DNA of 64,000 nt. It comes from Omnitrophica bacterium GWA2_41_15 (GTDB taxonomy: Bacteria > Omnitrophota > Gorgyraeia > Gygaellales > Profunditerraquicolaceae). The stretch is taken from the NCBI GenBank assembly GCA_919901915.1, contig CAKKQB010000013.1:64192-128191 (forward strand), written 5' to 3'. How positions within the stretch are numbered: position 1 is the stretch's first letter; each line of letters begins with the position of its first letter. Made by a program: the position numbers and the translations under genes. Below are positions 6,692 to 61,116 of the stretch, one piece after another. The notes under the pieces are model-generated. The model saw nothing but the letters and a program-made list of their open reading frames with translations, made no database searches and was not told where the DNA came from.

Positions 6692-6768
6692 TGGTGACGG
6701 CGGGTGGATTTGGACCACCGACTTAACGGGTATGAGCCGTTTGCTCTACCAGACTGAGCTACGCCGCC
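6692..6768 (-). tRNA. tRNA with CAT anticodon (elongator Met or Ile2/lysidine type; not initiator)
   Basis: Minus-strand GGCGGCGTAGCTCAGTCTGGTAGAGCAAACGGCTCATACCCGTTAAGTCGGTGGTCCAAATCCACCCGCCGTCACCA folds as cloverleaf; anticodon loop CTCATAC; anticodon stem lacks the 3 G-C of initiators; encoded CCA; T-loop reads TCCAAAT (C at position 55 unusual). Confidence 0.75.
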
Positions 6769-8012: not shown

Positions 8013-8218
8013 ATTCTCATGGGGCTGTTGCGAAATGCCATTTTTCGTCATTCCGGCGAAAACCGGAATCCAGAACTCTTTGATTTTAATAGACTTATGG
8101 ATACCGGCGACCGAGGGCGAAATGACCGAGGAAGTGTCGGAGCCTAACTGGGCTCGACCTTTCGCCAATATGACGATTTTAATGTATTTTGCAACAGCCC
8201 CCTCATGGATTTATCCGT
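8013..8218. mobile_element. MITE family A (~200 bp) with ~20-bp TIRs CATGGGGCTGTTGCGAAAT and internal hairpin GTCATTCCGGCGAAARCCGGAATCCAG
   Basis: near-identical copy at 51988-52171; TIRs read directly; spurious ORF 8035-8259. Confidence 0.8.
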
Positions 8219-8255
8219 GTTTATCCGTGTTCTTTTATCCGTGTCAATCCGTGTT
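8207..8255 (-). promoter_or_regulatory. cluster of 4 direct TTATCCGTGT (minus: ACACGGATAA) motifs with 10-14-bp phasing, just after pilMN stop / upstream of pilO
   Basis: ttatccgtgtttatccgtgttcttttatccgtgtcaatccgtgtt. Confidence 0.6.
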
Positions 8256-17286: not shown

Positions 17287-18916
17287 ACGTAGAATAATAA
17301 TAAGGTGTAGCGGCATGGAACTCCGCGGCACAGGTATCTACAAGTTTATACACGGGAAAAATATTAAATGATTCGCGTAATTTATACATGTCTTCTTCAT
17401 TTTTACCTAGTAAACGACTCAACTGCCTATCGCTAAAACCAAATTCCTTCGCTTGAGTAAGGAGCTCTTTTGTAATATTATTCTTGTTTTTTATAATCTC
17501 TTTCTCTAAATCAATTATTTCTTTTATATTTGCCAAAAACCAACGGTCAATCTTGGTTAATTCATTAATTTTTTCTATATCCACCCCTATCCTTAAGGCA
17601 TCGCCAATATAAAAGATCCTTTCAGCGTTAGGTATTCTTAACTTTTGCTCAATCTTTTCCCACGCGCCATTATCCAATTCGCCTAAACTTTCTAAACCAT
17701 ACTTTTTAATCTCCAGAGAACGCAGGCCCTTCTGCAAAGCCTCCTTAAAAGTCCTCCCTATCGCCATTACCTCACCAACGGACTTCATAGAAACTGTAAG
17801 CGTGGGATCAGCGGATGGAAATTTTTCAAAAGTAAAGCGGGGAATTTTTACCACGCAATAATCTATTGCCGGTTCAAAACAAGCGGGCGTTTCTTTGGTA
17901 ATATCATTAGGGATCTCATCTAAGGTATAACCCACGGCTAACTTCGCGGCAATTTTCGCGATGGGAAAACCAGTCGCCTTAGACGCCAGAGCAGAGCTTC
18001 TTGAAACCCTTGGATTCATCTCAATAATAACCATGCGCCCGGTTTCAGGATTAATCGCGAATTGAATATTAGAGCCTCCTGTACTAACGCCTATCTCTCT
18101 TATGCAGGCAATTGAGGCGTCGCGCATTTTTTGATATTCTTTATCAGTTAACGTTTGAATAGGCGCGACAGTAATACTATCTCCTGTATGTACGCCCATC
18201 GGATCAAAATTTTCAATGGAACAAACTATTACCACATTATCCATTGAATCCCGCATTACCTCTAATTCAAACTCCTTCCAGCCAATTACCGATTCCTCAA
18301 TAAGAATTTCGCTGTTCATGCTGGACTCAAGGCCATACTTTGCCAAATCCTTAAATTCTTCTATATTATAAGCAACACTTCCGCCTGTTCCGCCTAATGT
18401 AAAACTCGGCCGAATAATCACCGGAAAACCTATCTCTTTAACCGCCTCTATGGCCTCATTTAAATTATAGGCCTTTTTACTTTTAGGCAGGTCCAGGCCA
18501 ATTTTTTGCATCGCCTTTTTAAAAAGCTGCCTGTCTTCGCCTTTTTTGATTGCCTTTATATCTACGCCAATGGTTTCTACCTTATATTTTTTAAGGATTC
18601 CTTTTTCCGCTAAATCTATAGATATATTTAAAGCGGTCTGCCCTCCCAATGTAGGCAATAACGCGTCCGGCCTTTCTCTGGCGATAATCTTTTCTATGAC
18701 CTCTACGGTCATTGGCTCAATATATGTCGCGTCTGCCATTTGAGGGTCGGTCATAATAGTAGCAGGATTTGAATTTATTAAAACTACTTTATAACCTTCC
18801 TGCCTTAAAACCTTGCAGGCTTGAGTTCCGGAATAATCAAATTCACAACCCTGGCTGATAATAATCGGGCCTGAACCAATAATTAGAATCTTCTTTATGT
18901 CAGTACGTTTAGGCAT
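17279..18916 (-). CDS. carB: carbamoyl-phosphate synthase large subunit, N-terminal half only (split carB)
   Basis: [35 protein letters not shown]...; ends ...[14 protein letters not shown] exactly at the boundary between the two homologous halves (cf. E. coli ...YMYSTYEEE...). Confidence 0.85.
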
Positions 18917-18922
18917 AATAAT

Positions 18923-19029
18923 TAGCGTAGAGCGTAGAGCGGATAGTAAAATTAGCATTTAGCGTAGAGCGTAGAGCGTTTAATAAAAGTCTTTTGCCTT
19001 TTCTCTACGCTCTACGCTATACGCTATCC
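18923..19029. repeat. heptamer-array palindromic repeat, family F (AGCGTAG/AGCGTAT/AGCGGAT units), between carA and carB
   Basis: tandem 7-bp units in inverted arrays around AT-rich spacers. Confidence 0.85.
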
Positions 19030-20107: not shown

Positions 20108-20136
20108 TAGCGTATAGCGGATAGCGTAGAGCGTAT
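20108..20136. repeat. family F heptamer array (single arm, 4 units) between purF and carA
   Basis: agcgtat agcggat agcgtag agcgtat. Confidence 0.7.
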
Positions 20137-20157
20137 AATAGTATAAATTATTATCTT

Positions 20158-33322: not shown

Positions 33323-34750
33323 TTAGATAATCGGCAAATTATTTTCTTGCGTCAAATACTTATCCATAAAATCAGCGCAGCGCCTTCCTTCTGAAATGGC
33401 CCAAACAATTAAAGACTGACCGCGACGCATATCTCCACAAGAAAAAACGCCTCGCCGAGAAGTCAGAAAACTTTCTTTTAACAAGTTGTTTCTCTCTGGG
33501 GGCAAAAAACCCAAGGCTAAAATTACCAAATCCCCATCGAGTTCAAATTCGCTTCCGGAAATTTCTTCCATTACAGAATGGCCTGATTCATTCTTCTTGA
33601 ATTCAACCCGGCAGCAAGAAAGCTTTTTTACGTGTCCATTCTCACCAATAAACTTTTTTGTGGAAACCGACCAATCGCGAATTCCAGCTTCTTGGTGGCT
33701 GGTAGTAGCCTTAAGAAGCAGCGGATACTTTGGCCAGGGATAATCACGCGTGCGGGATTCAGCCGGCCGCGGCATAATTTCAATCTGGGTGACGCTCTTC
33801 GCGCCTTGCCTATGCGCGACGCCGATACAATCCGCGCCGGTATCCCCGCCGCCAATCACCACAACTTTTTTATCTTTAGCATCAATAAGTTCATCCGAAG
33901 AAAATTTTACGCCTTGCGCTCTTTTATTTGATTGAATCAAATAATCCATCGCGAAATATATGCCTTTTAATTCCCTTCCTTCTATCTTTTCAGCCGCAGG
34001 CTGATCCGCCTTCGGCGGAAGATCCCGAGGAATACGAGAACCGCAAGCTAAACAAATCGCGTCAAACTCTTTTCTTGAATAAGGCGCCTTTAAATCCATA
34101 CCCACATTTATGCCCGGCATAAATTTTATTCCTTCCTTTTTCAAAATTTCTAAGCGCCGATCCAAAATCCTTTTTTCTAATTTAAAATCCGGGATCCCAT
34201 AGCGAAGAATACCGCCAATTTTATCATCCCGCTCAAACACCACTACATTATGCCCCGCCTTGTTTAATTGATCCGCGCAAGATAAGCCCGCAGGGCCAGA
34301 ACCAATAATTGCCACTTTTTTTCCGGTGCGCCTCTTAGGCGGATTAGGCTTAATAAATCCATGTTTAAACGCGTACTCAATTATTGCCAACTCATTCTCT
34401 CTTGTAGTTACCGCCTCATCATTAATCTCTAAAACACAGGCATATTCGCAAAGAGCCGGACAAATTCTGCCGGTAATCTCCGGAAAATTATTAGTAGCCG
34501 AAAGCAGCAAATAAGCCTTTTCCCACTTGCCGCGAAATAACAAATCATTCCATTCCGGGATATAATTACTAATGGGACAGCCCCAAAGACAAAACGGCGT
34601 CCCACAATCCATGCAGCGCGAAGCCTGCTCCATAGAATGTTCGACTGCAGGTAATATGCCCACTTCGCGATAATCTTGGACGCGTTCACAAACAGGCCTG
34701 CATTTAGATACTTGCCTTTTAACTTTTAAGAAACCTTTAATATCACCCAT
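33323..34750 (-). CDS. gltD: glutamate synthase small (beta) subunit
   Basis: 475 aa; two Cys clusters, GSGPAGL FAD and NADPH Rossmann motifs; overlaps gltB by 8 nt. Confidence 0.9.
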   Translation of the reverse strand: MGDIKGFLKVKRQVSKCRPVCERVQDYREVGILPAVEHSMEQASRCMDCGTPFCLWGCPISNYIPEWNDLLFRGKWEKAYLLLSATNNFPEITGRICPALCEYACVLEINDEAVTTRENELAIIEYAFKHGFIKPNPPKRRTGKKVAIIGSGPAGLSCADQLNKAGHNVVVFERDDKIGGILRYGIPDFKLEKRILDRRLEILKKEGIKFMPGINVGMDLKAPYSRKEFDAICLACGSRIPRDLPPKADQPAAEKIEGRELKGIYFAMDYLIQSNKRAQGVKFSSDELIDAKDKKVVVIGGGDTGADCIGVAHRQGAKSVTQIEIMPRPAESRTRDYPWPKYPLLLKATTSHQEAGIRDWSVSTKKFIGENGHVKKLSCCRVEFKKNESGHSVMEEISGSEFELDGDLVILALGFLPPERNNLLKESFLTSRRGVFSCGDMRRGQSLIVWAISEGRRCADFMDKYLTQENNLPII

Positions 34751-37700
34751 CTGATGCCTCCACCAACTCTATTTTCTCTTCTGTTTTTCTGCCTCCTAAT
34801 ACACGTTTATATTCAATGGGCATAACTTTTACAAATTTTTTTAATTCAGGAGTAAAATTATCTAAGATATTTTTCGCGCTGGAACTGCGCGTATAATGAT
34901 AGTGATTAGAAAGCAACTTCTCGATTGTTCGCGCGTCTTCTTCGGCCACGGCCTCAAGTATTACCATTTCCATATTGCACTTATTCTTAAAATCTCCGTC
35001 CTTATCCCAAACATAGGCGATACCGCCTGACATACCCGCGGCAAAATTTCTTCCGGTTCTGCCGATAACCACAACTCTGCCTCCGGTCATATATTCGCAA
35101 GCGTGATCTCCTACGCCCTCAACCACCGCGTAAAGGCCGGAATTCCTGATACAAAATCTCTCACCGGCAATCCCGCGGATATAGGCAGAGCCTAAAATTG
35201 CTCCGTAAAAAGTAGTATTGCCAATAATAATATTTTCTTCTACTTTGTAATTTGATTGCCTATCCGGATAGATGATAATTTTCCCTCCGGACATACCTTT
35301 ACCTACATAATCATTCGTCAGGCCTTCTAACTCAAGAGTAACTCCTTTGGCAAGCCAAGCGCCAAAACTTTGACCTGCCACACCCTTAAATTTAAAGTGT
35401 ATCGTATTCGCGGGTAAACCATCCTCCCCAAAAATACGACAAACTTCGCCGCTTAACATCGTGCCGACACTACGATTATGATTTCTAATGGATAGCTCTA
35501 TTTTAATTGGCTTCCTATTTTCCAAGGCGCCCCGAGCCAATTCGATAAGTTTTCTATCTAGAATATTGTCAATTCCGTAATCCTGTTTATAAGGAGCCAA
35601 ACCACTGCCCTCTGGCTTGCGGCTCGGGCTATGGGAAGCCCGACCATTGCCCTTTGGCTGATATAAAATCCGGGAAAAATCTATTTTCTTTGCTTTCCAG
35701 GGAAGAATCTTGCTATTTACTTCCAACAAATCAGCGCGGCCAATCAGATCATCTATTTTAACAATACCTAAACTACTCATAATCTGACGCAATTCCTGGG
35801 CAATGAAACGAAAATAATTTTCTACATATTCCGGCTTCCCGCTAAAGCGTTTCTCTAAAAGTTCATCCTGCGTAGCCACGCCAAGAGAACAGTTATTTAA
35901 GTGGCAATGTCTAAGCATAACACATCCCAAAACAACTAAGACTGAAGTACAAAATCCAAACTCCTCCGCGCCCAAAAGCGCGGCCACAGCCACATCCCTG
36001 CCGGTGCGCATTCCTCCGTCAACCTGAAGCCTCACCCTGCTTCTTAAATCATTTAAAACCAGGGTCTGATGTGTTTCGGCAATACCTAATTCCCAGGGAA
36101 GCCCGGCATGCTTAATGGAACTTAAGGGGGATGCCCCGGTGCCGCCATCTCCGCCGGAAATCAAAATCATATCCGCGTGCCCCTTAGCCACTCCCGTGGC
36201 AATAGTTCCTACTCCAATTTCAGAAACAAGTTTTACACTAACGCGCGCGCGCGGATTAACATTTTTTAAATCAAAAATTAGCTGGGCTAAATCTTCAATA
36301 GAATAAATATCATGATGCGGCGGCGGAGAAATCAAAGTTACGCCGGGAGTTGTATAACGAATCTTAGCGATAGCCGCGCTTACTTTGTGGCCGGGAAGCT
36401 GGCCGCCTTCCCCGGGCTTAGCGCCTTGCGCGATTTTAATCTGCAATTCATCAGCATTTACTAAGTAATTCGTAATAACGCCAAAACGCCCGGAAGCAAC
36501 CTGCTTTATAGCGCTGCGCTTAGAATCTCCGTTTGGGAACGCGACAAAACGCGCTGGATCCTCTCCTCCTTCGCCGGTATTAGACCTACCCCCCAATCTA
36601 TTCATCGCGATAGCTATTGTTTCATGGCAAGCCTTACTAATTGAGCCAAAACTCATCGCGCCGGTAACAAAACGCCGGACGATTTCGCTAACCGGCTCTA
36701 CTTCTTCAATGGGAATAGGCTTAACTTCTTTAAATTTAAAAAGGCTTCTTAAAGTAGCAGGATTACTTGATTGATCATTAATGAGTTTCGCAAACTCCTG
36801 GTATTTTTTAGAATCATTATTTCTTACCGCACCCTGCAAAGCGGCAATACTATCCGGATTCCAAAGATGAAATTCACCGTCTTTCTTCCACTGATACAGG
36901 CCGCCAGTTGCTAAAAATGGCCTTTGTAAACCATCGACCGCGAATGCCTCTTTGTGCCTTAGAAGCGCTTCCTTCTCAATAATTCCTAAATCAATACCTC
37001 CAATACGGGAAACTGTTCCGGTGAAATATTTATCAATTACCTCTGAACTTAGGCCCAATGCCTCGAATATCTGCGCGCCCCGATAACTTTGTAAAGTAGA
37101 AATTCCCATTCTTGAGAGTATCTTTAGAATGCCTTTATCCACTGCCTTAATATAATGCTTTATCGCGGACTCTAAATCTAAGTCAACTTCCTTATCTCTA
37201 ATTAAAAAGGCGGCCGCTTCATAGGCAAGATACGGATTAATACAATCCGCGCCATACCCAAACAAGAGCGCGAAATGATGCACCTCGCGCGGAGAAGCGC
37301 TTTGAACAATAATACTTACCTGGGTACGCAGCGCCTTTCTTACCAAATCCTGATGCACACAAGCCGTTGCCAATAACGCGCTAAGGCAGGCCTTATCTTT
37401 ATTTATACCCTGATCACTTAAAATAACAAAAGTAAAACCCTCTTTTATCGCGGCTTCTGTTTCTTTGCAAATCCTGTCTAATGCTTTTTTAAAATTGTTT
37501 TTTTCTGAAATATTAAACAGAAGAGAAATTGTTTTTGTTTTAAAACCGTTCTTTTTTATATCGTGAATCTTTTTCAGATCTTCATTTGTCAAAATAGGAT
37601 TTTTTACTAATAACTTATGGCAATGCCGCGGCTGCTCATCCAAAATATTTTTTTGCGGCCCTAAATACGTATCAAGGCTCATCACCAGCTCTTCCCTGAT

Positions 37701-39386
37701 TGGGTCAATTGCCGGATTAGTAACCTGCGCGAATAACTGTTTAAAATAACTATAAAGCAACTGCGGCTTATCAGATAAAACCGCATGCGGGGTATCATTA
37801 CCCATTGAGCCATTCGGTTCATGAGAATCTTCCACCATAGGTTTAATGATAAATTTAAAATCCTCGCGGGTGTAACCGAAAGCTTTGAATAGAGTTAACG
37901 GATCTACTTTATTAGCGGATAGCGGATAGCTTTTATTAGCGTAGAGCGTAGAGCGTAAAGCGTAGAGCGTTTTGCTTTTCCTATCCGCTATACGCTCTAC
38001 GCTATCCGCTGATAATTTATCCAACTCTAACATATTTTTTTTAAGCCATTCTCCATACGGCTTAGAGCTTGCCATTGTTTCTTTTATTTCCTTATCTTCA
38101 ATTATGCGGCCTTCTTCTGTATCAACAAAAAGCATCTTTCCCGGTTCAAGCCTTCCTGAGATAGAAATATCATCCGGCGCGATATCTAAAACCCCTGCCT
38201 CTGAAGCCATAACTACCAAATTCTTTTTGGTCACAATATAGCGGCTAGGCCTTAAACCATTTCTGTCTAAAACCGCGCCAATCCTTACGCCATCAGTAAA
38301 GGCAATGGCTGCCGGTCCATCCCAGGACTCAATAAGACAAGTGTGGTATTTATAAAAATCTCTTACATTTTGACTCAAAAGATTATTCTGCTCCCAAGCG
38401 CTGGGTATTAACATCATCATCGCGTGAGACAAAGATCTACCCGATAAAACTAAAAGTTCAAAAACATTATCAATAGCCGCGGAATCGCTTCCCCCGGGAA
38501 CAATCACCGGAAAAATTTCCTTTAAATCCTTACCAAATAATTTACTTTTTAGTAAACCTTGGCGGGCAGTCATCCAATTTATATTCCCTTTTAAGGTATT
38601 TATCTCTCCATTATGCGCCAAGAACCGAAAAGGCTGCGCCAGATCCCAAGTGGGAAAAGTATTGGTACTATAACGGGAATGCACTAAACAAATCGCGCTT
38701 TGAAGAGCGCTGTCTTTTAAATCCAAAAAGAATTTCTCCAACTGCTCAGGCATAAGCAGGCCTTTATAAGAAAGCGTGCGGCAAGAAAGATTAGTAATAT
38801 AAAAAAATGATTTTTGTTTTAAGAATAAAGAGCGGATTTCGTTTTCTATTTTCTTGCGGATAATATAAAGCCTGCGCTCAAAATCAAGGCCATCCTTACC
38901 TATACTTAGACCTTTACCTTTACCTATAAAAACCTGCTCAATCACCGGTTGAGTAAGCTTTGCGGTTTTGCCAATCGCGGAATTATCAACCGGGACAATC
39001 CGCCAACCAAGCAAGGCCTGGCCCTCTTCTTTAATAATTCTAGCAAAGATACCCTTACATAACGCGCGCTCTTTTTTGTTAGTGGGAAGAAATACCATGC
39101 CTATCCCATAATCGCCAGAGGACGGTAAAATAAAATTTTCCTTCGCGCAGGCTTTTGCCAAAAATTCATGTGGCGCCTGAATAAGTATGCCTGCGCCATC
39201 CCCGGTCTCTGGGTCGGCGCCAGTTGCCCCGCGATGAGAAAGACGGCCTAAAACCTCCATGCCCTGTTTAATAATTTCATAAGATTTTTTGCCTTTGACA
39301 TCGCAAACAAATCCTACGCCGCAGGAATCATGTTCAAAACGGGAATCATACAACCCGTATTTTTCTAATTTCTGACGATTATCCAT
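34743..39386 (-). CDS. gltB: glutamate synthase large (alpha) subunit; carries in-frame heptamer-repeat insertion
   Basis: 1547 aa; MDNRQ..CGVGFV Ntn glutaminase, FMN and GXGXG domains; residues ~459-492 encoded by palindromic repeat at 37912-38010. Confidence 0.95.
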   Translation of the reverse strand: MDNRQKLEKYGLYDSRFEHDSCGVGFVCDVKGKKSYEIIKQGMEVLGRLSHRGATGADPETGDGAGILIQAPHEFLAKACAKENFILPSSGDYGIGMVFLPTNKKERALCKGIFARIIKEEGQALLGWRIVPVDNSAIGKTAKLTQPVIEQVFIGKGKGLSIGKDGLDFERRLYIIRKKIENEIRSLFLKQKSFFYITNLSCRTLSYKGLLMPEQLEKFFLDLKDSALQSAICLVHSRYSTNTFPTWDLAQPFRFLAHNGEINTLKGNINWMTARQGLLKSKLFGKDLKEIFPVIVPGGSDSAAIDNVFELLVLSGRSLSHAMMMLIPSAWEQNNLLSQNVRDFYKYHTCLIESWDGPAAIAFTDGVRIGAVLDRNGLRPSRYIVTKKNLVVMASEAGVLDIAPDDISISGRLEPGKMLFVDTEEGRIIEDKEIKETMASSKPYGEWLKKNMLELDKLSADSVERIADRKSKTLYALRSTLYANKSYPLSANKVDPLTLFKAFGYTREDFKFIIKPMVEDSHEPNGSMGNDTPHAVLSDKPQLLYSYFKQLFAQVTNPAIDPIREELVMSLDTYLGPQKNILDEQPRHCHKLLVKNPILTNEDLKKIHDIKKNGFKTKTISLLFNISEKNNFKKALDRICKETEAAIKEGFTFVILSDQGINKDKACLSALLATACVHQDLVRKALRTQVSIIVQSASPREVHHFALLFGYGADCINPYLAYEAAAFLIRDKEVDLDLESAIKHYIKAVDKGILKILSRMGISTLQSYRGAQIFEALGLSSEVIDKYFTGTVSRIGGIDLGIIEKEALLRHKEAFAVDGLQRPFLATGGLYQWKKDGEFHLWNPDSIAALQGAVRNNDSKKYQEFAKLINDQSSNPATLRSLFKFKEVKPIPIEEVEPVSEIVRRFVTGAMSFGSISKACHETIAIAMNRLGGRSNTGEGGEDPARFVAFPNGDSKRSAIKQVASGRFGVITNYLVNADELQIKIAQGAKPGEGGQLPGHKVSAAIAKIRYTTPGVTLISPPPHHDIYSIEDLAQLIFDLKNVNPRARVSVKLVSEIGVGTIATGVAKGHADMILISGGDGGTGASPLSSIKHAGLPWELGIAETHQTLVLNDLRSRVRLQVDGGMRTGRDVAVAALLGAEEFGFCTSVLVVLGCVMLRHCHLNNCSLGVATQDELLEKRFSGKPEYVENYFRFIAQELRQIMSSLGIVKIDDLIGRADLLEVNSKILPWKAKKIDFSRILYQPKGNGRASHSPSRKPEGSGLAPYKQDYGIDNILDRKLIELARGALENRKPIKIELSIRNHNRSVGTMLSGEVCRIFGEDGLPANTIHFKFKGVAGQSFGAWLAKGVTLELEGLTNDYVGKGMSGGKIIIYPDRQSNYKVEENIIIGNTTFYGAILGSAYIRGIAGERFCIRNSGLYAVVEGVGDHACEYMTGGRVVVIGRTGRNFAAGMSGGIAYVWDKDGDFKNKCNMEMVILEAVAEEDARTIEKLLSNHYHYTRSSSAKNILDNFTPELKKFVKVMPIEYKRVLGGRKTEEKIELVEASDG
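37912..38010. repeat. family F heptamer-array palindrome inserted in frame inside gltB
   Basis: agcggat x2 ... agcgtag x4 ... ctatccgct atacgct ctacgct atccgct; translates LSADSVERIADRKSKTLYALRSTLYANKSYPLSANK. Confidence 0.85.
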
Positions 39387-39391
39387 ATTTT

Positions 39392-39558
39392 TAGCGTATA
39401 GCGTATAGCGTAGAGCGTAGAGCGTATAGCGTATAGCGTAGAACGTAGAGCGTAGAGCGGATAGCGGATAGTAAAAATCTATGTTTTAACTATATGTTAT
39501 CCGCTATTCCTACACGCTTTCTTTCCTATCCGCTAAACGCTATACGCTCTACGCTAAT
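39392..39558. repeat. largest family F locus (11-unit left arm + degenerate right arm) between glnN and gltB
   Basis: direct reading of tandem heptamers. Confidence 0.85.
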
Positions 39559-43201: not shown

Positions 43202-44635
43202 TTAGGTTCTTTCGTCTTTAAGGTAGTTAATTATTGAAAAAGCGGCTTTCTTAGCCATGCCCATTGCCTCAATAACCGTGCCTTCTCCACCCACGATATC
43301 TCCGCCGGCAAAAACGCCTTTAATAGATGTCTCCATAGTTTGGGGGTTTACGATAACATCTTTGTATTTATCGGTTTTTAACTCCGATGTAACATTAGTT
43401 AAAACCTGATTTGCCTGCAAACCCACGGCAATAATCGCTATATCGCAATCTATTCCAAAATCGCTTCCCTCTACAGCAACCGGCCTTCTTCTCCCGGATT
43501 CATCCGGCTCTCCCAAGCGGCACCTAAGACACCTTAACTTTTGCACCTTTCCTTCCTCATCGCCGATAAACTCTACTGGCTGAACCAAAAATTCAATTTT
43601 TATTCCCTCTTCCTTAGCATGTTCGATTTCCAATCTTCTTGCCGGCATCTCAACTTCAGTCCTACGATAAAGAATTGTGGTGTTAGGGCTAAACCCATTT
43701 ATTATTTGCAATCTTAACGCGGCTCGAGCAGCATCCAAAGCTGTATTGCCTCCGCCAACAACTAAGACCTGCTTACCTATATTAATAGGGGTGTGAAACT
43801 GAGGAAACTTGTCAGCTAACATCAAATTAACCCGAGTTAAGAATTCATTGGCTGAATAAACATTGCCTAAATTCTCGCCTTTTATTTCTAAAAATGACGG
43901 CACACCCGCGCCCAACCCCAGAAATATAGCAGAATATCCTTCGCTAAAAAGCTCATCTAACGCCTTAACTTTTCCCACAATAAAATTAGGGATGAGTTGA
44001 ACCCCCAATTTCTTTAACTCATTTATTTCATAATCAAGAACATCGCGCGGCATCCTAAAAGGGGGTATCCCATACCTTAAAACTCCGCCCGGTTTATGCA
44101 AACTCTCAAAGATATCCACCTTTACTCCCTGCCTTGCCAATTCACCGGCGCAAGCCAAACCAGCCGGACCAGAACCCACAACCGCGACTTTAAACCCAAA
44201 CTTAACAAATTTCTGATCCTTGCCTGCTGGCGCCTCCAAATTATTCTTTACCCCATAATCACCGACAAATCTTTCCAAAAAATGAATATTGATTGCCTGC
44301 TCTGAAGCAAAAGAGGCGGTCTTTTTTGTCAAAACACAAGCCCTGCGGCACTGATATTCCGCGGGACAAACCCTTCCGCAAATAGAGGGAAAATCATTCT
44401 TTTCCCGAAGAATAAAATAAGCCGCCCTATAATCTTTTTTGGTAATCCAAGAGATAAACTCCTTTATATTTATTCCTACGGGACAACCGAATTGACAAAT
44501 AGGGTTCGGACACTGCAGACAGCGGTTAGCCTCAATAAGCGCCTCTTCTTCTGTGTATCCTAAAACTACCTCATCAAAATTCTTTATTCTTTCTGAAGGA
44601 TTTAATTCTCTTACTTTTACTGCTTCTTTTTTCAT
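43202..44635 (-). CDS. nfnB: NADH-dependent reduced ferredoxin:NADP oxidoreductase large subunit (NfnB/SudA, GltD-like)
   Basis: 477 aa, 2x[4Fe-4S] Cys motifs, FAD and NADPH Rossmann folds. Confidence 0.8.
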   Translation of the reverse strand: MKKEAVKVRELNPSERIKNFDEVVLGYTEEEALIEANRCLQCPNPICQFGCPVGINIKEFISWITKKDYRAAYFILREKNDFPSICGRVCPAEYQCRRACVLTKKTASFASEQAINIHFLERFVGDYGVKNNLEAPAGKDQKFVKFGFKVAVVGSGPAGLACAGELARQGVKVDIFESLHKPGGVLRYGIPPFRMPRDVLDYEINELKKLGVQLIPNFIVGKVKALDELFSEGYSAIFLGLGAGVPSFLEIKGENLGNVYSANEFLTRVNLMLADKFPQFHTPINIGKQVLVVGGGNTALDAARAALRLQIINGFSPNTTILYRRTEVEMPARRLEIEHAKEEGIKIEFLVQPVEFIGDEEGKVQKLRCLRCRLGEPDESGRRRPVAVEGSDFGIDCDIAIIAVGLQANQVLTNVTSELKTDKYKDVIVNPQTMETSIKGVFAGGDIVGGEGTVIEAMGMAKKAAFSIINYLKDERT

Positions 44636-44661
44636 CCTCTTATTTTTAATGTTTTAGTATT

Positions 44662-44741
44662 TAGCGGATAGCGTATAGCGTATATATAGGTTTTACTATC
44701 CGCTATACGCTCTACGCTATACGCTATACGCTTGATATTTT
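44662..44741. repeat. family F palindrome between nfnB and nfnA
   Basis: agcggat agcgtat agcgtat / atccgct atacgct ctacgct atacgct atacgct. Confidence 0.85.
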
Positions 44742-45569
44742 AAGATTACAGATATGCTTTTCTTTATCTAAATAAACACTGTTCCTCTTTGTCAATTCAT
44801 CCCAATTTACTTGAGTTCCGTCAAATTCCGGGCCATCAACGCAAGCAAATTTCGTCTTACCTGCCACAGTTACACGGCAACAGCCGCACATTCCAGTAGC
44901 ATCTACCATCAAAGGATTCAAAGAAACAATGGTTTTAACTTTAAAATCGCTAGCAACCTCGCAAACTCTTCTCATCATCGGTATCGGGCCGACTGCGTAA
45001 ATTAGCGAATAGCGGATAGCGGATAGTGAATAGCTTAATACCTCCTGCAAAATATCAGTAACAAAGCCTTTCCTGCCGCAAGAACCGTCATCAGTGGTTA
45101 TATAAAGCTCATCGCAAAACACCTTTAGCTCCTGCTCCAAAATCAATAAATCATTGTTTCTTGCGCCCAGTATAGTAGTAGTATGGTTTCCCGCTTCTTT
45201 CAAAGCCTTGGCAACCGGATAAATCTCCGCAATTCCTACGCCTCCGCCTACAAGAATTAAATTTCCAAAATTTTTAATCTCAGTAGCATGCCCCAGGGGC
45301 CCGGCCAAAGCGTATAATGAATCACCAACCTCCATCTTGCCCAGCAACTTAGTAGTTAAGCCAACCTCTTGAAAGATCAAGGTAATTGTGCCTATGTCAG
45401 AATTTTTATCTACTATAGTTAGAGGTATCCTTTCGCCTTCCTCGCATACCATAAGAACAACAAATTGGCCCGGTCTTACTTTCCTGGCAATAAGCGGGCT
45501 TAAGATTTCAAAGCGCTTAATTGTTACGTCTTGCGTTTGTGCTAAAATTTCTTTTTTGATTATCCGCAT
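44724..45569 (-). CDS. nfnA: NfnA/SudB (PyrK-like FAD/[2Fe-2S] subunit); in-frame heptamer-repeat insertion
   Basis: 281 aa; C-terminal CGCC...C 2Fe-2S; segment LSYSLSAIRYSLI encoded by repeat 45003-45036. Confidence 0.75.
   Translation of the reverse strand: MRIIKKEILAQTQDVTIKRFEILSPLIARKVRPGQFVVLMVCEEGERIPLTIVDKNSDIGTITLIFQEVGLTTKLLGKMEVGDSLYALAGPLGHATEIKNFGNLILVGGGVGIAEIYPVAKALKEAGNHTTTILGARNNDLLILEQELKVFCDELYITTDDGSCGRKGFVTDILQEVLSYSLSAIRYSLIYAVGPIPMMRRVCEVASDFKVKTIVSLNPLMVDATGMCGCCRVTVAGKTKFACVDGPEFDGTQVNWDELTKRNSVYLDKEKHICNLKISSV
45003..45036. repeat. family F single arm inserted in frame in nfnA
   Basis: agcgaat agcggat agcggat agtgaat. Confidence 0.75.
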
Positions 45570-45607
45570 AGAAAAAATTGATTACCGAAAGAAAAGGATT
45601 CGTTGAT

Positions 45608-45728
45608 GGGACTGTTGTGAAATACCAAACCTTGCGTCATTCTGAGGCCGAAAGCCGAAGAATCTCGACGCTGATAAGATCCTTCGCTTCGCTCAGGATG
45701 ACGAAAAAGGGTATTTCGCAACGGTCCC
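45608..45728. mobile_element. MITE family B: same TIR family (GGGACTGTTGYGAAATAC) with different internal hairpin GTCATTCTGAGGCC...GCTCAGGATGAC
   Basis: TIRs at 45608-45626 and 45709-45728. Confidence 0.7.
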
Positions 45729-45740
45729 TTGATCGGAATC

Positions 45741-47642: not shown

Positions 47643-47650
47643 CGTTTTCA

Positions 47651-47718
47651 GCGTTTAGCGGATAGCGTTTAGCGTATAGTTTTTTTTATCCGCTATACGC
47701 TCTACGCTATACGCTATT
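47651..47718. repeat. family F palindrome between lrp and aminotransferase
   Basis: arms around T8 loop. Confidence 0.85.
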
Positions 47719-48225: not shown

Positions 48226-48288
48226 GGAGAGAACAGATTACAGAGTACGGATTACTGAAAGATTTTTCTGTGCTCTGTTCTCTGTGCT
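48226..48288. repeat. family G heptamer palindrome (CAGAGAA/CAGAGCA units) forming nadE 3' end
   Basis: gagagaacagattacagag ... ctgtgctctgttctctgtgc. Confidence 0.8.
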
Positions 48289-53644: not shown

Positions 53645-53700
53645 TAGCGCGGATAGCGTTTAATTTTTTCTATACGCTATACGCTCTACGCTATACGCTA
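53645..53700. repeat. family F palindrome between nrdJ and apgM
   Basis: agcgcggat agcgttt ... atacgct atacgct ctacgct atacgct. Confidence 0.85.
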
Positions 53701-59775: not shown

Positions 59776-61116
59776 TTAATGAAATTTTTTCTTGGCTTTT
59801 TTTGAGATACACAAGGCGGGATTTTTCCAAAACTCTTTGAGCGTATAATAAGCTTTGCGGGGAGAGCGTTTATTCAACCTTTGTCCTGCCGGGTCTTTAC
59901 TGCCTAATAAGGCATCCTCAGGCTCTTGCGACAATGCCACAATACCAAACCACTCTTCATTCATATTTTTATTGCCTTCTACCTTTATATCAAAATAATA
60001 GTTTCCGTTAGACCAATTCGAACCAGTATCATGCTCGAGCCACGTATCAGAGGCATGCTCATCATACTTCCACCATTCATCTGACCACTCAAAAATAACG
60101 CCGCCTAAACAATTGCCCGCGCCTTTCTTATTACCCGCCAGATTCCCATAAATCTGACACCATTGAGATTCCAGGAAAAATGCCTGCATATCCTGATCTT
60201 CCTTTTTTAAATAGGCATCATAACAATCAGCACCAATTTCTACCAAAAGAATTGGCTTGTCAAAAGTTAATTTTAAAGATTTAAAAAGGTTTCCAAAGGT
60301 CTTACCTCTATAGATAATGCAAGCAATCAAATCTACGTCAGGACAATATTCCTTCGCGTATTCCAACCCTGTCAACTCGCCATTCCCCAATGCCACAGGA
60401 TGTTGAGGGTCGAGTTCATGGACAGCTTTCGTCAAATCATTTACATAAGAATAATAAATCCTGGAACGTATGGCTCCTTGTTTCTGGGGATCTGGTTCTT
60501 TTTCTGCTTCTTCGCAGGCCCAAGGATTAACACGGCCTAAACAAGAATAGTTATTTTCATTGCCCATAATCCACATAAGCAATCCGGGCTCGTCCTTATA
60601 TAAGCTGACCATATCCAGGACATCTTTCTTTATTCTTTCCTGAAAACCCTTATCTCCATAGAATGGGCCGGGATACTCCCAAAAAGATAACCAATGGCCT
60701 AAAATTGTGCGTATTCCGTAAAGCTGATAAAGCTCGCTAATTACTTTTTTTACCGCTTCTGGATTATCTCCCGGCTGATAAATTCTTATGGTATTAACCC
60801 CCATCTCATGCATCAGTTTTCCGTCTACAATCCAAGGTTTATTGGGGTCAGACCACCAGTCATATTCGTGATTCTTACCAATAGGAACAGGATTATAACA
60901 AACCCCTTTTACGATGTAAGGTTTTTTATCTACTATCAACTGGTAGTAATTATTTTTAAGTTTTTTAATATAAACTCCGGGCTTTGGCTTTGAGGCCATA
61001 CCCATTAAAAACAGAACACAGAGCACAGAAAACAGAGAACAGAATATTTTTCTCTGTGCTCTGCGCTCTGTTCTCTGTGCTCTATTTTCCGTTCTCTTAT
61101 TCATACTTAATTTCAT
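59776..61116 (-). CDS. putative clan GH-A (TIM-barrel) glycoside hydrolase; N-terminus encoded by heptamer repeat
   Basis: 446 aa; MGVNTIRIY, IMGNENNY (acid/base), GGVIFEWSDEWWK (nucleophile region); paralog of 62381-63961; start uncertain (alternative Met at MGMASKP). Confidence 0.65.
   Translation of the reverse strand: MKLSMNKRTENRAQRTERRAQRKIFCSLFSVLCVLFLMGMASKPKPGVYIKKLKNNYYQLIVDKKPYIVKGVCYNPVPIGKNHEYDWWSDPNKPWIVDGKLMHEMGVNTIRIYQPGDNPEAVKKVISELYQLYGIRTILGHWLSFWEYPGPFYGDKGFQERIKKDVLDMVSLYKDEPGLLMWIMGNENNYSCLGRVNPWACEEAEKEPDPQKQGAIRSRIYYSYVNDLTKAVHELDPQHPVALGNGELTGLEYAKEYCPDVDLIACIIYRGKTFGNLFKSLKLTFDKPILLVEIGADCYDAYLKKEDQDMQAFFLESQWCQIYGNLAGNKKGAGNCLGGVIFEWSDEWWKYDEHASDTWLEHDTGSNWSNGNYYFDIKVEGNKNMNEEWFGIVALSQEPEDALLGSKDPAGQRLNKRSPRKAYYTLKEFWKNPALCISKKAKKKFH
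61001..61074. repeat. family G heptamer palindrome forming 5' end of GH gene
   Basis: aacagaacacagagcacagaaaacagagaacagaa / tctgtgctctgcgctctgttctctgtgctct. Confidence 0.8.

Follow-up and report, generated by a model that had tools for sequence, protein, structure and literature searches.

A tandem array of seven-nucleotide units has been found within the coding sequence of nfnA in Omnitrophica bacterium GWA2_41_15, in a 64,000-nucleotide (nt) stretch of contig CAKKQB010000013.1 (positions 64,192 to 128,191 of the forward strand), to which we refer as the window and whose own numbering is used throughout. The array is translated in frame as part of the NfnA/PyrK-like protein; its units belong to the family, here called family F, whose arrays are abundant in the intercistronic gaps of the window, and they occupy a loop that is filled with arrays of other units in many relatives. 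The explanation to which we give roughly an even chance is that the nfnA tract is a translated and tolerated single arm of the heptamer family of this genome, residing in a permissive loop that has been rewritten recurrently.

The host gene (44724..45569, on the minus strand like all genes of the window) codes for 281 amino acids (aa) and is, judging from its sequence, the NfnA/PyrK-like small subunit of an NADH-dependent ferredoxin:NADP+ oxidoreductase, which binds flavin adenine dinucleotide (FAD), nicotinamide adenine dinucleotide (NAD) and a [2Fe-2S] cluster. It is similar to Thermotoga maritima NfnA (4ylf_A) over the full length with E=5.2e-80 and to the small subunit of Pyrococcus NfnI (5jca_S) over residues 3-271 with E=7.6e-85, and it contains the Pfam domains NAD_binding_1 (residues 106-203) and DHODB_Fe-S_bind (219-254). 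Residues D223, C228, C231 and C243, which we take to be the cluster ligands after the T. maritima NfnA structure, are invariant among 63 homologues. The gene is followed by nfnB (43202..44635, minus strand), which encodes the GltD-like large subunit of 477 aa with the Fer4_20 and Pyr_redox_2 domains; the same gene pair is present also at 129 related loci, and the closest homologues of NfnA come from Candidatus Omnitrophota.

The array itself has the sequence reported in the initial annotation of this DNA. On the plus strand, positions 45004-45034 comprise units of the type AGCGNAT in 4.4-4.6 copies, namely AGCGAAT, AGCGGAT twice and AGTGAAT, followed by a partial AGC, and Tandem Repeats Finder (TRF) delimits the array as 45003-45034, with a period of 7, 4.6 copies and 84% matches. 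In the sense of the mRNA (minus strand) it reads (CUAUNCG)n, an orientation free of stop codons in all frames. The array is real and not an artefact of assembly, since three independent assemblies contain it in identical form: two ENA assemblies, made from different Hainich groundwater samples, agree over the whole of 2846 nt around nfnA, and a Logan assembly matches as well.

The proposal of the initial annotation that this array is of one family with the intergenic arrays of the window is borne out by several comparisons. With at most one mismatch, AGYGRATAGYGRAT matches the window 11 times against 0.37 expected and (CGCTANN)3 matches it 22 times against 0.01 expected, the segment 45003-45021 of nfnA being, on the minus strand, a perfect match to the latter. 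A 32-mer of nfnA is identical to at least 13 other arms at 23-26 of 32 positions (the maximum among shuffled sequences was 21), and the 17-mer AGCGGATAGCGGATAGT is common to the nfnA array and to positions 39456-39472. Two of the four units in the nfnA array are AGCGGAT, which ranks second in frequency among the variants of the intergenic arms; the dominant unit of the family, CTATACG (AGCGTAT on the other strand), is absent from this array.

Family F, with the unit AGCGNAN on the plus strand and CGCUANN in the mRNA, occupies at least 10 sites in the 64 kb, most of them adjoining start or stop codons. A typical element comprises, in the mRNA sense, an upstream stop codon, (AGCGUAU)n, an A/U-rich loop, (CUAUACG)n, a spacer of 5-7 nt and AUG; the paired arms fold at -30 to -47 kcal/mol (z about -5), and single arms are unstructured. 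The nfnA arm is of the single kind, with a folding energy of -2.8 kcal/mol and z of +1.75, and it lies inside the gene at codons 178-190, not in a gap between a stop and a start. The forward unit contains TAG, therefore a forward array halts translation in every frame within 21 nt. The reverse unit has no stop in any frame, and it is this reverse, start-proximal orientation that the nfnA tract shows. The stop codon of nfnA is itself the TAG of the first unit of the element that follows, the nfnA-nfnB intercistronic hairpin (-32.3 kcal/mol, z -5.1), whose 5' arm (44696..44732, minus strand, AGCGUAU x5.3 in the mRNA) contains in that unit also the last two codons of nfnA, and whose 3' arm of the CUAUACG type (44662..44684, minus strand) lies upstream of the Shine-Dalgarno sequence and start of nfnB.

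The initial annotation counted nfnA as a second genic copy of family F and concluded that coding sequences are frequent targets. The other copy does exist: gltB (open reading frame (ORF) 34743..39386) contains at 37899..38010, on the minus strand and in frame, a complete two-arm element that adds about 26 residues in comparison with PDB 7mfm and has G in place of T exactly at the would-be in-frame TAG. It is, however, the only other genic copy in the window, and the generalization was overstated, as two of about 10 sites in the window are genic and both of them fall in variable loops or linkers.

The tract had been placed between the NAD-binding fold and the Fe-S region, but it actually lies inside the NAD-binding domain, before its last strand. 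The codons for L178-I190 (LSYSLSAIRYSLI; 45000..45038, minus strand) correspond in an AlphaFold2 model of NfnA (mean predicted local distance difference test score, pLDDT, of 85 overall) to the end of the helix 170-181, the loop 182-188 and the start of the strand 189-193, so that the structural modelling suggested in the initial annotation did place the tract at a loop, presumably on the surface; the last heptamer unit encodes the Tyr-x-Leu that opens the strand. The block 181-190 is modelled with a mean pLDDT of 80, against 93 and 89 in the neighbouring blocks. In Rossmann-type folds, helix-to-strand connections of such kind lie away from the nucleotide site, and from this topology the L178-I190 loop is expected on the face away from that site.

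Nor can the tract be a 34-nt in-frame insertion of a 13-residue segment, as was originally suggested: 34 nt cannot be inserted in frame, and the net gain over canonical NfnA is four residues, with 11-13 residues at this place in the homologues. The solved structures have 3-4 residues fewer between the conserved LQ.L and YAVGP. The stretch matching EVLSYSLSAIRYSLI among 271 unique homologues has 11 residues in 154 sequences (typically ELLSKDKYDLV) and 15 residues in 65, with rarer lengths of 8, 13-16, 18-22, 29 and 38 residues and 12 residues in the outgroups; altogether, the loop is lengthened in about one third of these NfnA sequences. The stretch from the Leu-Leu to the Leu-Ile/Val codons measures 42 nt, or six heptamers, in the long form and 30 nt in the short canonical one.

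We gathered DNA of 175 related loci (cited below by L numbers) and scanned the resulting 1.89 Mb with TRF. Heptamer arrays of 3.9-5.3 copies with differing units were found at codons 174-180 of nfnA in the relatives, and at least 12 heptamer and two octamer unit types sit at exactly this site. The heptamers include perfect arrays of CTATCGA (x4.4, L015), AAGCCAC (x4.6, L128) and AGGGTCA (x4.3, L130), as well as CACGAAA (L019), AACACCG (L055), AACTTAA (L006), AACTTAC (L110), TACTCAA (L089), CTTACAG (L161), TTAAAGC (L164), ACGCTAA (L162) and TAGCGTA (L082), the last being the unit of the window in the opposite orientation. L169 has ACCCTAC x6.7 and a loop of 22 residues, against 15 in the related L025. 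Perfect octamer arrays occupy the loop in L171 (763-798) and L172 (2868-2902), with AGACCGGC x4.5 and AACCGGCA x4.4 and loops of 18 and 20 residues, respectively, and L170 has a palindrome there. In L041 and L148 the loop contains an in-frame element resembling miniature inverted-repeat transposable elements (MITEs), with TGTCATTGCGAG ends, which is related to a sequence in the window at 45578-45740. This sequence, situated between the gene for a GAF-ANTAR regulator and nfnA, is similar to repetitive extragenic palindromic (REP) sequences or MITEs and translates to 'RHPERSEGS...SAFGLRMT'. Some long loops show no periodicity (period-7 self-identity of 0.2-0.35) and resemble decayed arrays. According to the initial annotation, the finding of the same segment as a conserved part of the fold in homologues would have spoken against an insertion; segments of the same length are indeed present in many homologues, yet they are hypervariable, as arrays of different types have a mean identity of 41% against 67% in their flanks, and in relatives they consist of other heptamers or octamers.

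Heptamers dominate the related loci in general: among arrays of at least 3.5 copies, 64 have a period of 7, 10 a period of 6, nine a period of 8 and three a period of 5, and the modal copy number is 4-5. The nfnA site accounts for 13 of the period-7 arrays; of the 54 at other places, about 24 are in long ORFs, and by equal TRF criteria the frequency of arrays in nfnA is several times that in an average gene. A second permissive site is the NfnB linker between Fer4_20 and the FAD-binding domain, which carries heptamer arrays in L015 (11234-11261), L065 (11223-11255) and L079 (11167-11200), without change of its length in L015 and L079, and a MITE-like insert with TGTCATTGCGAG ends in L041. The forward-oriented nfnA array of L082 has the variant unit agcgtaC exactly at the would-be in-frame TAG, which reflects selection against stop codons. 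The inserts of L082, L162 and L004 match arms of the window at 32/34, 30/31 and 20/21 positions; these matches hint at homology at the sequence level, although they are largely what arrays of the same unit give, and we do not use them as proof of copying. Units are shared exactly between sources in 35 pairs against 6.4 expected, 22 of the 35 involving the window's own arrays, while single-linkage clustering of units (at most one mismatch, all rotations) merged nearly everything. Across all loci, 25 arrays were close to start codons against 19.6 expected, which is not significant; the control counted internal Met codons of long ORFs as starts, and the comparison was left unused.

The history of the loop, including a possible monophyly of its long form, was followed on neighbour-joining trees of NfnA alone and of NfnA and NfnB combined with the loop masked (100 bootstraps), which resolve close pairs only. 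The window and L161 are sisters with a bootstrap of 100, and their flanks are identical at 78% of nucleotides, against 16 of 39 (41%) in the arrays (P=7e-7). The two arrays have the same length and different units, and serine is encoded by AGC in L161 and by TCA or TCG in the window. At least one of them has therefore been overwritten after the split with its length kept, and the lengthened, array-encoded loop predates its present content. As to the claim that the nfnA array is an independent insertion, its family and its frame stand; the event was an overwriting of a loop that had been array-encoded already. An AGCTTAW-type array as the ancestral state of the window lineage was considered and rejected, because L175, L164/L174 and L161, in which this type occurs, do not group on the tree; unit types form a mosaic there, and only the replacement in at least one of the window and L161 can be claimed.

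Elsewhere on the tree, L006 (long loop) and L024 (a short, canonical-looking SKEQHGLI) are grouped with a bootstrap of 100 and joined, again with 100, by L015, which has a long loop made of another unit, and therefore the gains were independent. L014 and L019 are sisters with loops of 9 and 16 residues; the difference of 7 residues corresponds to three units, and it is in such steps that in-frame changes of the loop come. A long loop correlates with Val in place of Thr at residue 170 (odds ratio 8.8, uncorrected for phylogeny), therefore some shared ancestry or structural coupling is likely.

The relation between the array and the repeats of its own genome is found also in a genome with another family. 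In L175, the element before purL consists of a stop, (AGCTATA)x5.4, a loop, (CTTAAAG/CTTACAG)x6.4, a Shine-Dalgarno sequence and ATG, and the nfnA array of this genome is a sense copy of its own start-proximal arm, just as in the window, where the family is that of AGCGTAT. No second copy of the genome's own nfnA unit was found in the flanks of the other approximately 12 array-bearing genomes with at least 12 kb of sequence.

According to the explanation that we favour, the loop was lengthened and heptamer-encoded already before the split from L161, the closest relative, and its content was overwritten afterwards without change of length, the outcome in the window being units of the family that is abundant in the intercistronic gaps of this genome. 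Copying probably proceeded by template switching or ectopic copying from another arm via A/T-rich microhomology, and the enzyme would merely tolerate the segment. The content of the array would be subject to three filters: the reading frame has to be kept, stop codons have to be absent and the next strand has to open with Tyr-x-Leu. Across Candidatus Omnitrophota the same loop has been rewritten repeatedly, with many unit types, octamers, palindromes and a MITE-like element. Of these points, the comparisons above establish the family of the array, its place in the fold, the recurrence of arrays at this site, the replacement since the split from L161 and, for two genomes, the own-family match.

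Several observations weigh against this explanation. About 14 array-bearing genomes have 12 kb of sequence or more, and only two of them show arrays of the same unit in the flanks, so the own-family match is either not general or the flanks are too short to reveal it. The dominant unit CTATACG is not represented among the four units in nfnA, and we roughly estimate at 5-10% the chance that a unit compatible with Tyr-x-Leu looks F-like by convergence. Arrays of the same type (L162/L173, L164/L174, L161/L175) are conserved as well as the flanking codons or better, which one would not expect of a passive passenger. The copying mechanism is one that we infer; the combined tree resolves close pairs only, therefore the number of independent events is uncertain; and the correlation of the long loop with V170 suggests partial shared ancestry.

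The conservation of same-type arrays is an argument for an alternative that we regard as unlikely, if possible: that the array acts in cis, as a functional element of the RNA or the DNA, and is bound by the same trans-acting factor as the start-proximal arms, and that the loop merely accommodates the site. The factor would also serve the arms before carA, carB, gltB, nfnB and the aminotransferase gene, so that the array would have to match the genome's own family and would be kept in its nucleotide sequence. Within one type, the identity of arrays is 72-90%, against 66-75% in their flanks. The F-type arrays of L162 and L173 agree at 39/39 positions with a flank identity of about 0.70 (P about 1e-6), in proteins that are 73% identical, and all 13 array codons are the same, against 45% of same-residue codons elsewhere; the figures are 35/39 and 0.75 for L164 and L174 (P 0.019) and 34/39 and 0.68 for L161 and L175 (P 0.005). 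Such conservation may reflect a constraint on the nucleotide sequence, repeated copying from a conserved family or exchange of patches between lineages. The cis-element is also favoured by the agreement of the nfnA array with the own family in two genomes with different families, by the arms that stand in place of the Shine-Dalgarno sequence at several starts, and by a family-F arm directly before carA in L119 (13447-13473), orthologous to 20108-20137 of the window, which has been kept despite a different upstream gene (CarA is 77% identical). Besides, start-adjacent heptamer repeats have been proposed as binding sites of regulators (PMC4679880; bioRxiv 10.1101/2022.06.06.494920). On the other hand, the trans-acting factor is putative, the loop is short and array-free in most Omnitrophota and decayed in many of the long forms, and the arrays of the window and L162 differ at 9 of 39 positions. 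The tract is unstructured and lies about 370 nt from the start of nfnB, and most array-bearing genomes have no other copy of their unit nearby.

A broader version of this idea, which we entertain with the same reserve, is that the arrays are a code for a lineage-specific trans-acting factor, which would read them to control the translation of operons without Shine-Dalgarno sequences, and that the nfnA loop is a long-standing embedded site, rewritten as the family of the genome changes. The genes of the window that bear on it are mostly nitrogen- and glutamine-using (carA, carB, gltB, glnA and nfnB). In a related version, a dedicated mechanism may write the heptamers and target the nfnA site.

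It is doubtful that the array is a purely local microsatellite, which would have arisen by slippage in an unconstrained loop, seeded by the TA-N5-TA of the Tyr-x-Leu codons, and would resemble family F by convergence. In its favour, most unit types at the site occur nowhere else in the 1.9 Mb from related loci, uniformity is highest among the central units while those at the ends pass gradually into the flanking Leu codons, loop lengths step by 7 residues (L025 and L169, L014 and L019), ATACGAT in the short canonical form is a single base away from ATACGCT, a rotation of the F unit, and arrays in the NfnB linker arise without change of length. However, the 17-mer and the arrangement AGCGGAT-AGCGGAT-AGT are common to the array of the window and the intergenic arms, L175 repeats the relation with another family, and the F unit of L082, at 32/34 to an arm of the window, is in the opposite orientation, which a local seed cannot yield. 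The unrelated unit of equal length in the sister L161 is also poorly explained by stepwise, frame-selected slippage.

The version of the initial annotation, a recent independent insertion of a family-F arm into a canonical nfnA, is improbable. It agrees with the family identity of the array and with the genuine two-arm insertion in gltB of the same genome, but L161 and many other relatives already have a 15-residue loop made of other heptamers, and the net difference of 12 nt equals neither the tract in length nor any multiple of the unit.

A phase-variation switch, in which the gain or loss of one 7-nt unit would shift the frame, turn NfnA off and remove the Fe-S domain, is suggested by a unit length that is not a multiple of three and by the perfect arrays of 4-5 units in several lineages; it is very improbable, as there is no frameshifted nfnA among 165 loci, the tract is the same in all three assemblies, clusters at 90% identity contain no variants of loop length and differ only in the called N-termini, and the short tract lies at 65% of the gene for a core metabolic enzyme. 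Hardly more credible is the third arm of an RNA switch, in which the tract would pair with the complementary AGCGUAU arm after the nfnA stop (44696-44732, 270 nt downstream on the same mRNA), compete with the hairpin and tune the translation of nfnB, since both the minimum free energy and the centroid folds of 44630-45060 keep the local hairpin and leave the nfnA tract unpaired with it, and relatives with nfnA arrays have no complementary arm nearby.

Several known systems resemble family F. Direct repeats of the heptamer TAACTGA have been described in marine Beggiatoaceae, some Cyanobacteria and Bacteroidetes (MacGregor 2015, PMC4679880); they are located just upstream of starts without Shine-Dalgarno sequences, overlap the upstream stops, and occur within ORFs only in the open orientation (PMC4679880). 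Both families thus consist of dispersed tandem 7-nt units in many copies, mostly a few nt before starts, in gaps without Shine-Dalgarno sequences; in both, forward copies overlap the upstream stop because they carry stops, and copies within ORFs have the open (reverse) orientation and encode a 7-residue repeat, LSVISYQ in Beggiatoa and LSAIRYS in the window. The genic copies described here are either stop-free (nfnA) or forward, with G or C at the place of a would-be in-frame TAG (gltB and L082). The unit AGCGNAN of the window, however, is neither TAACTGA nor any of STRR1-3, and its elements, unlike the TAACTGA repeats, are mostly inverted arm pairs that form stop-to-start hairpins. Moreover, the in-ORF copies of Beggiatoa are found at protein termini or in hypothetical proteins, whereas nfnA, the gene of a conserved enzyme, has its copy in the codons of an internal loop that is filled by other units in many lineages.

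In bacteria generally, seven is the period over-represented among long repeats (PMC4692102). The cyanobacterial STRR and the GGGNATC-type repeats of Xanthomonas and Nostoc are likewise over-represented heptamers with a preference for about four units; for the most part they are found between genes of the same direction, no more than 50 bp from a start or stop, and some of them overlap stops (Rehm 2015, PMC4692102). The window shares with them the over-representation of heptamers, the number of about four units and the start- or stop-adjacent positions; they differ in being G-rich, with proposed quadruplexes, while the units of the window are not G-rich. As to genic copies of the STRR and GGGNATC-type repeats, only their under-representation was reported, and no single recurrent site in a protein was assigned to them. 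Heptamer repeats near starts in Nostoc have been linked to regulation. Geobacter metallireducens has 49 copies of four tandem heptanucleotides GGACCGG, within and between genes, with a suggested regulatory role (Aklujkar 2009, PMC2700814). That family, too, is a dispersed one of about four heptamers inside and between genes, but the unit and the phylum are different, and the report on it describes neither a hairpin architecture nor a mapping on protein structure nor a comparison of lineages. Phase-variable coding microsatellites, the contingency loci of host-adapted pathogens, are also coding tandem repeats with a unit length that is not a multiple of three; nfnA differs from them by the lack of copy-number or frame polymorphism, by the short mid-gene tract and by encoding a housekeeping enzyme. 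A literature search returned no report of elements with two arms between stop and start in Omnitrophota, of a homologous loop of one enzyme that many unit types fill recurrently, or of such a loop matching the genome's own repeat family.

Within a single phylum, one homologous site of a universally present enzyme thus holds a dozen or more different arrays of heptamers or octamers. The replacement between sisters, the conservation by type and the own-family match mean that the nfnA loop can be used as a reporter of the repeat family that is, or was, active in a genome, and it allows for tests of whether such repeats are copied from elsewhere or originate locally. It also illustrates clearly how short non-triplet repeats build a protein loop under selection for the reading frame and against stops. 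If the arrays are binding sites, the stop-hairpin-start elements would point to an undescribed coupling of translation in Omnitrophota operons; and if they are a code read by a lineage-specific factor, a conserved enzyme would carry in its coding sequence a regulatory site that co-evolves with a genome-wide repeat family.

The remaining members of family F in the window, all on the minus strand, adjoin genes in the manner described above. An element between the stop of glnA (glutamine synthetase type III) and the start of gltB (39392..39556) has a start-proximal arm of 11.4 units, which ends 5 nt before the ATG, and a degenerate copy precedes glnA itself. A single arm (20108..20137) ends 5 nt before the start of carA, and another element (18924..19025) lies between the carA stop and the carB start. 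The hairpin at 47650..47717 fills the gap from the stop of an Lrp/AsnC gene (47717) to the start of the aminotransferase gene, and the element at 53646..53700 separates the stop of the ribonucleotide reductase gene (53711) from the start of the phosphoglycerate mutase gene. The arms end 5-7 nt before the starts at 18916 (carB), 20102 (carA), 39386 (gltB), 47642 (aminotransferase) and 53637 (phosphoglycerate mutase); the element at nfnB (start 44635) comes with a Shine-Dalgarno sequence. Eight of nine family-F sites are inside a nitrogen-assimilation cluster (17279-48202) that comprises carB, carA, purF, gltB, glnA type III, amtB, nfnB, nfnA, the GAF-ANTAR regulator, the aminotransferase and Lrp, and this clustering may indicate a regulon or merely local spread. 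In L025, a family-F arm precedes the gene after nfnB.

Other repeats were also observed. A second heptamer family, ACAGAGC / CTCTGTG, occurs in the window at 48228-48288 and 61008-61083 with the same stop-arm-loop-arm-ATG layout as family F. A direct repeat of 464 bp (14714-15598; 1.9 copies at 100% identity) has arrays of the decamer TTTATCCGTG at its borders; the decamer is present also at 8210-8255, and the segments 14013-14046, 14692-14734 and 15178-15198 belong to the same observation. A scan of the window against Rfam matched none of the arrays to any family and gave a tRNA at 6695-6768 as the sole match. In the related loci, AGCTGAT arrays of 4.6-4.9 copies end 3-6 nt before a start in L011 (6239-6271), L063 (706-739) and L085 (6421-6452); a rotation of this unit, CTGATAG, is one base from CTGATAA, itself a rotation of the TAACTGA of Beggiatoa. 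A tandem repeat of 28 nt (3.6 copies) at 1014-1114 of L161 overlaps the 3' end of nfnA and extends the protein of this closest relative to 294 aa. Finally, nfnAB genes of the Omnitrophota type are carried by L015, which is titled as a Methanosarcinales archaeon, and by several loci titled Planctomycetia or Planctomycetales; these titles are probably errors of binning or labelling.

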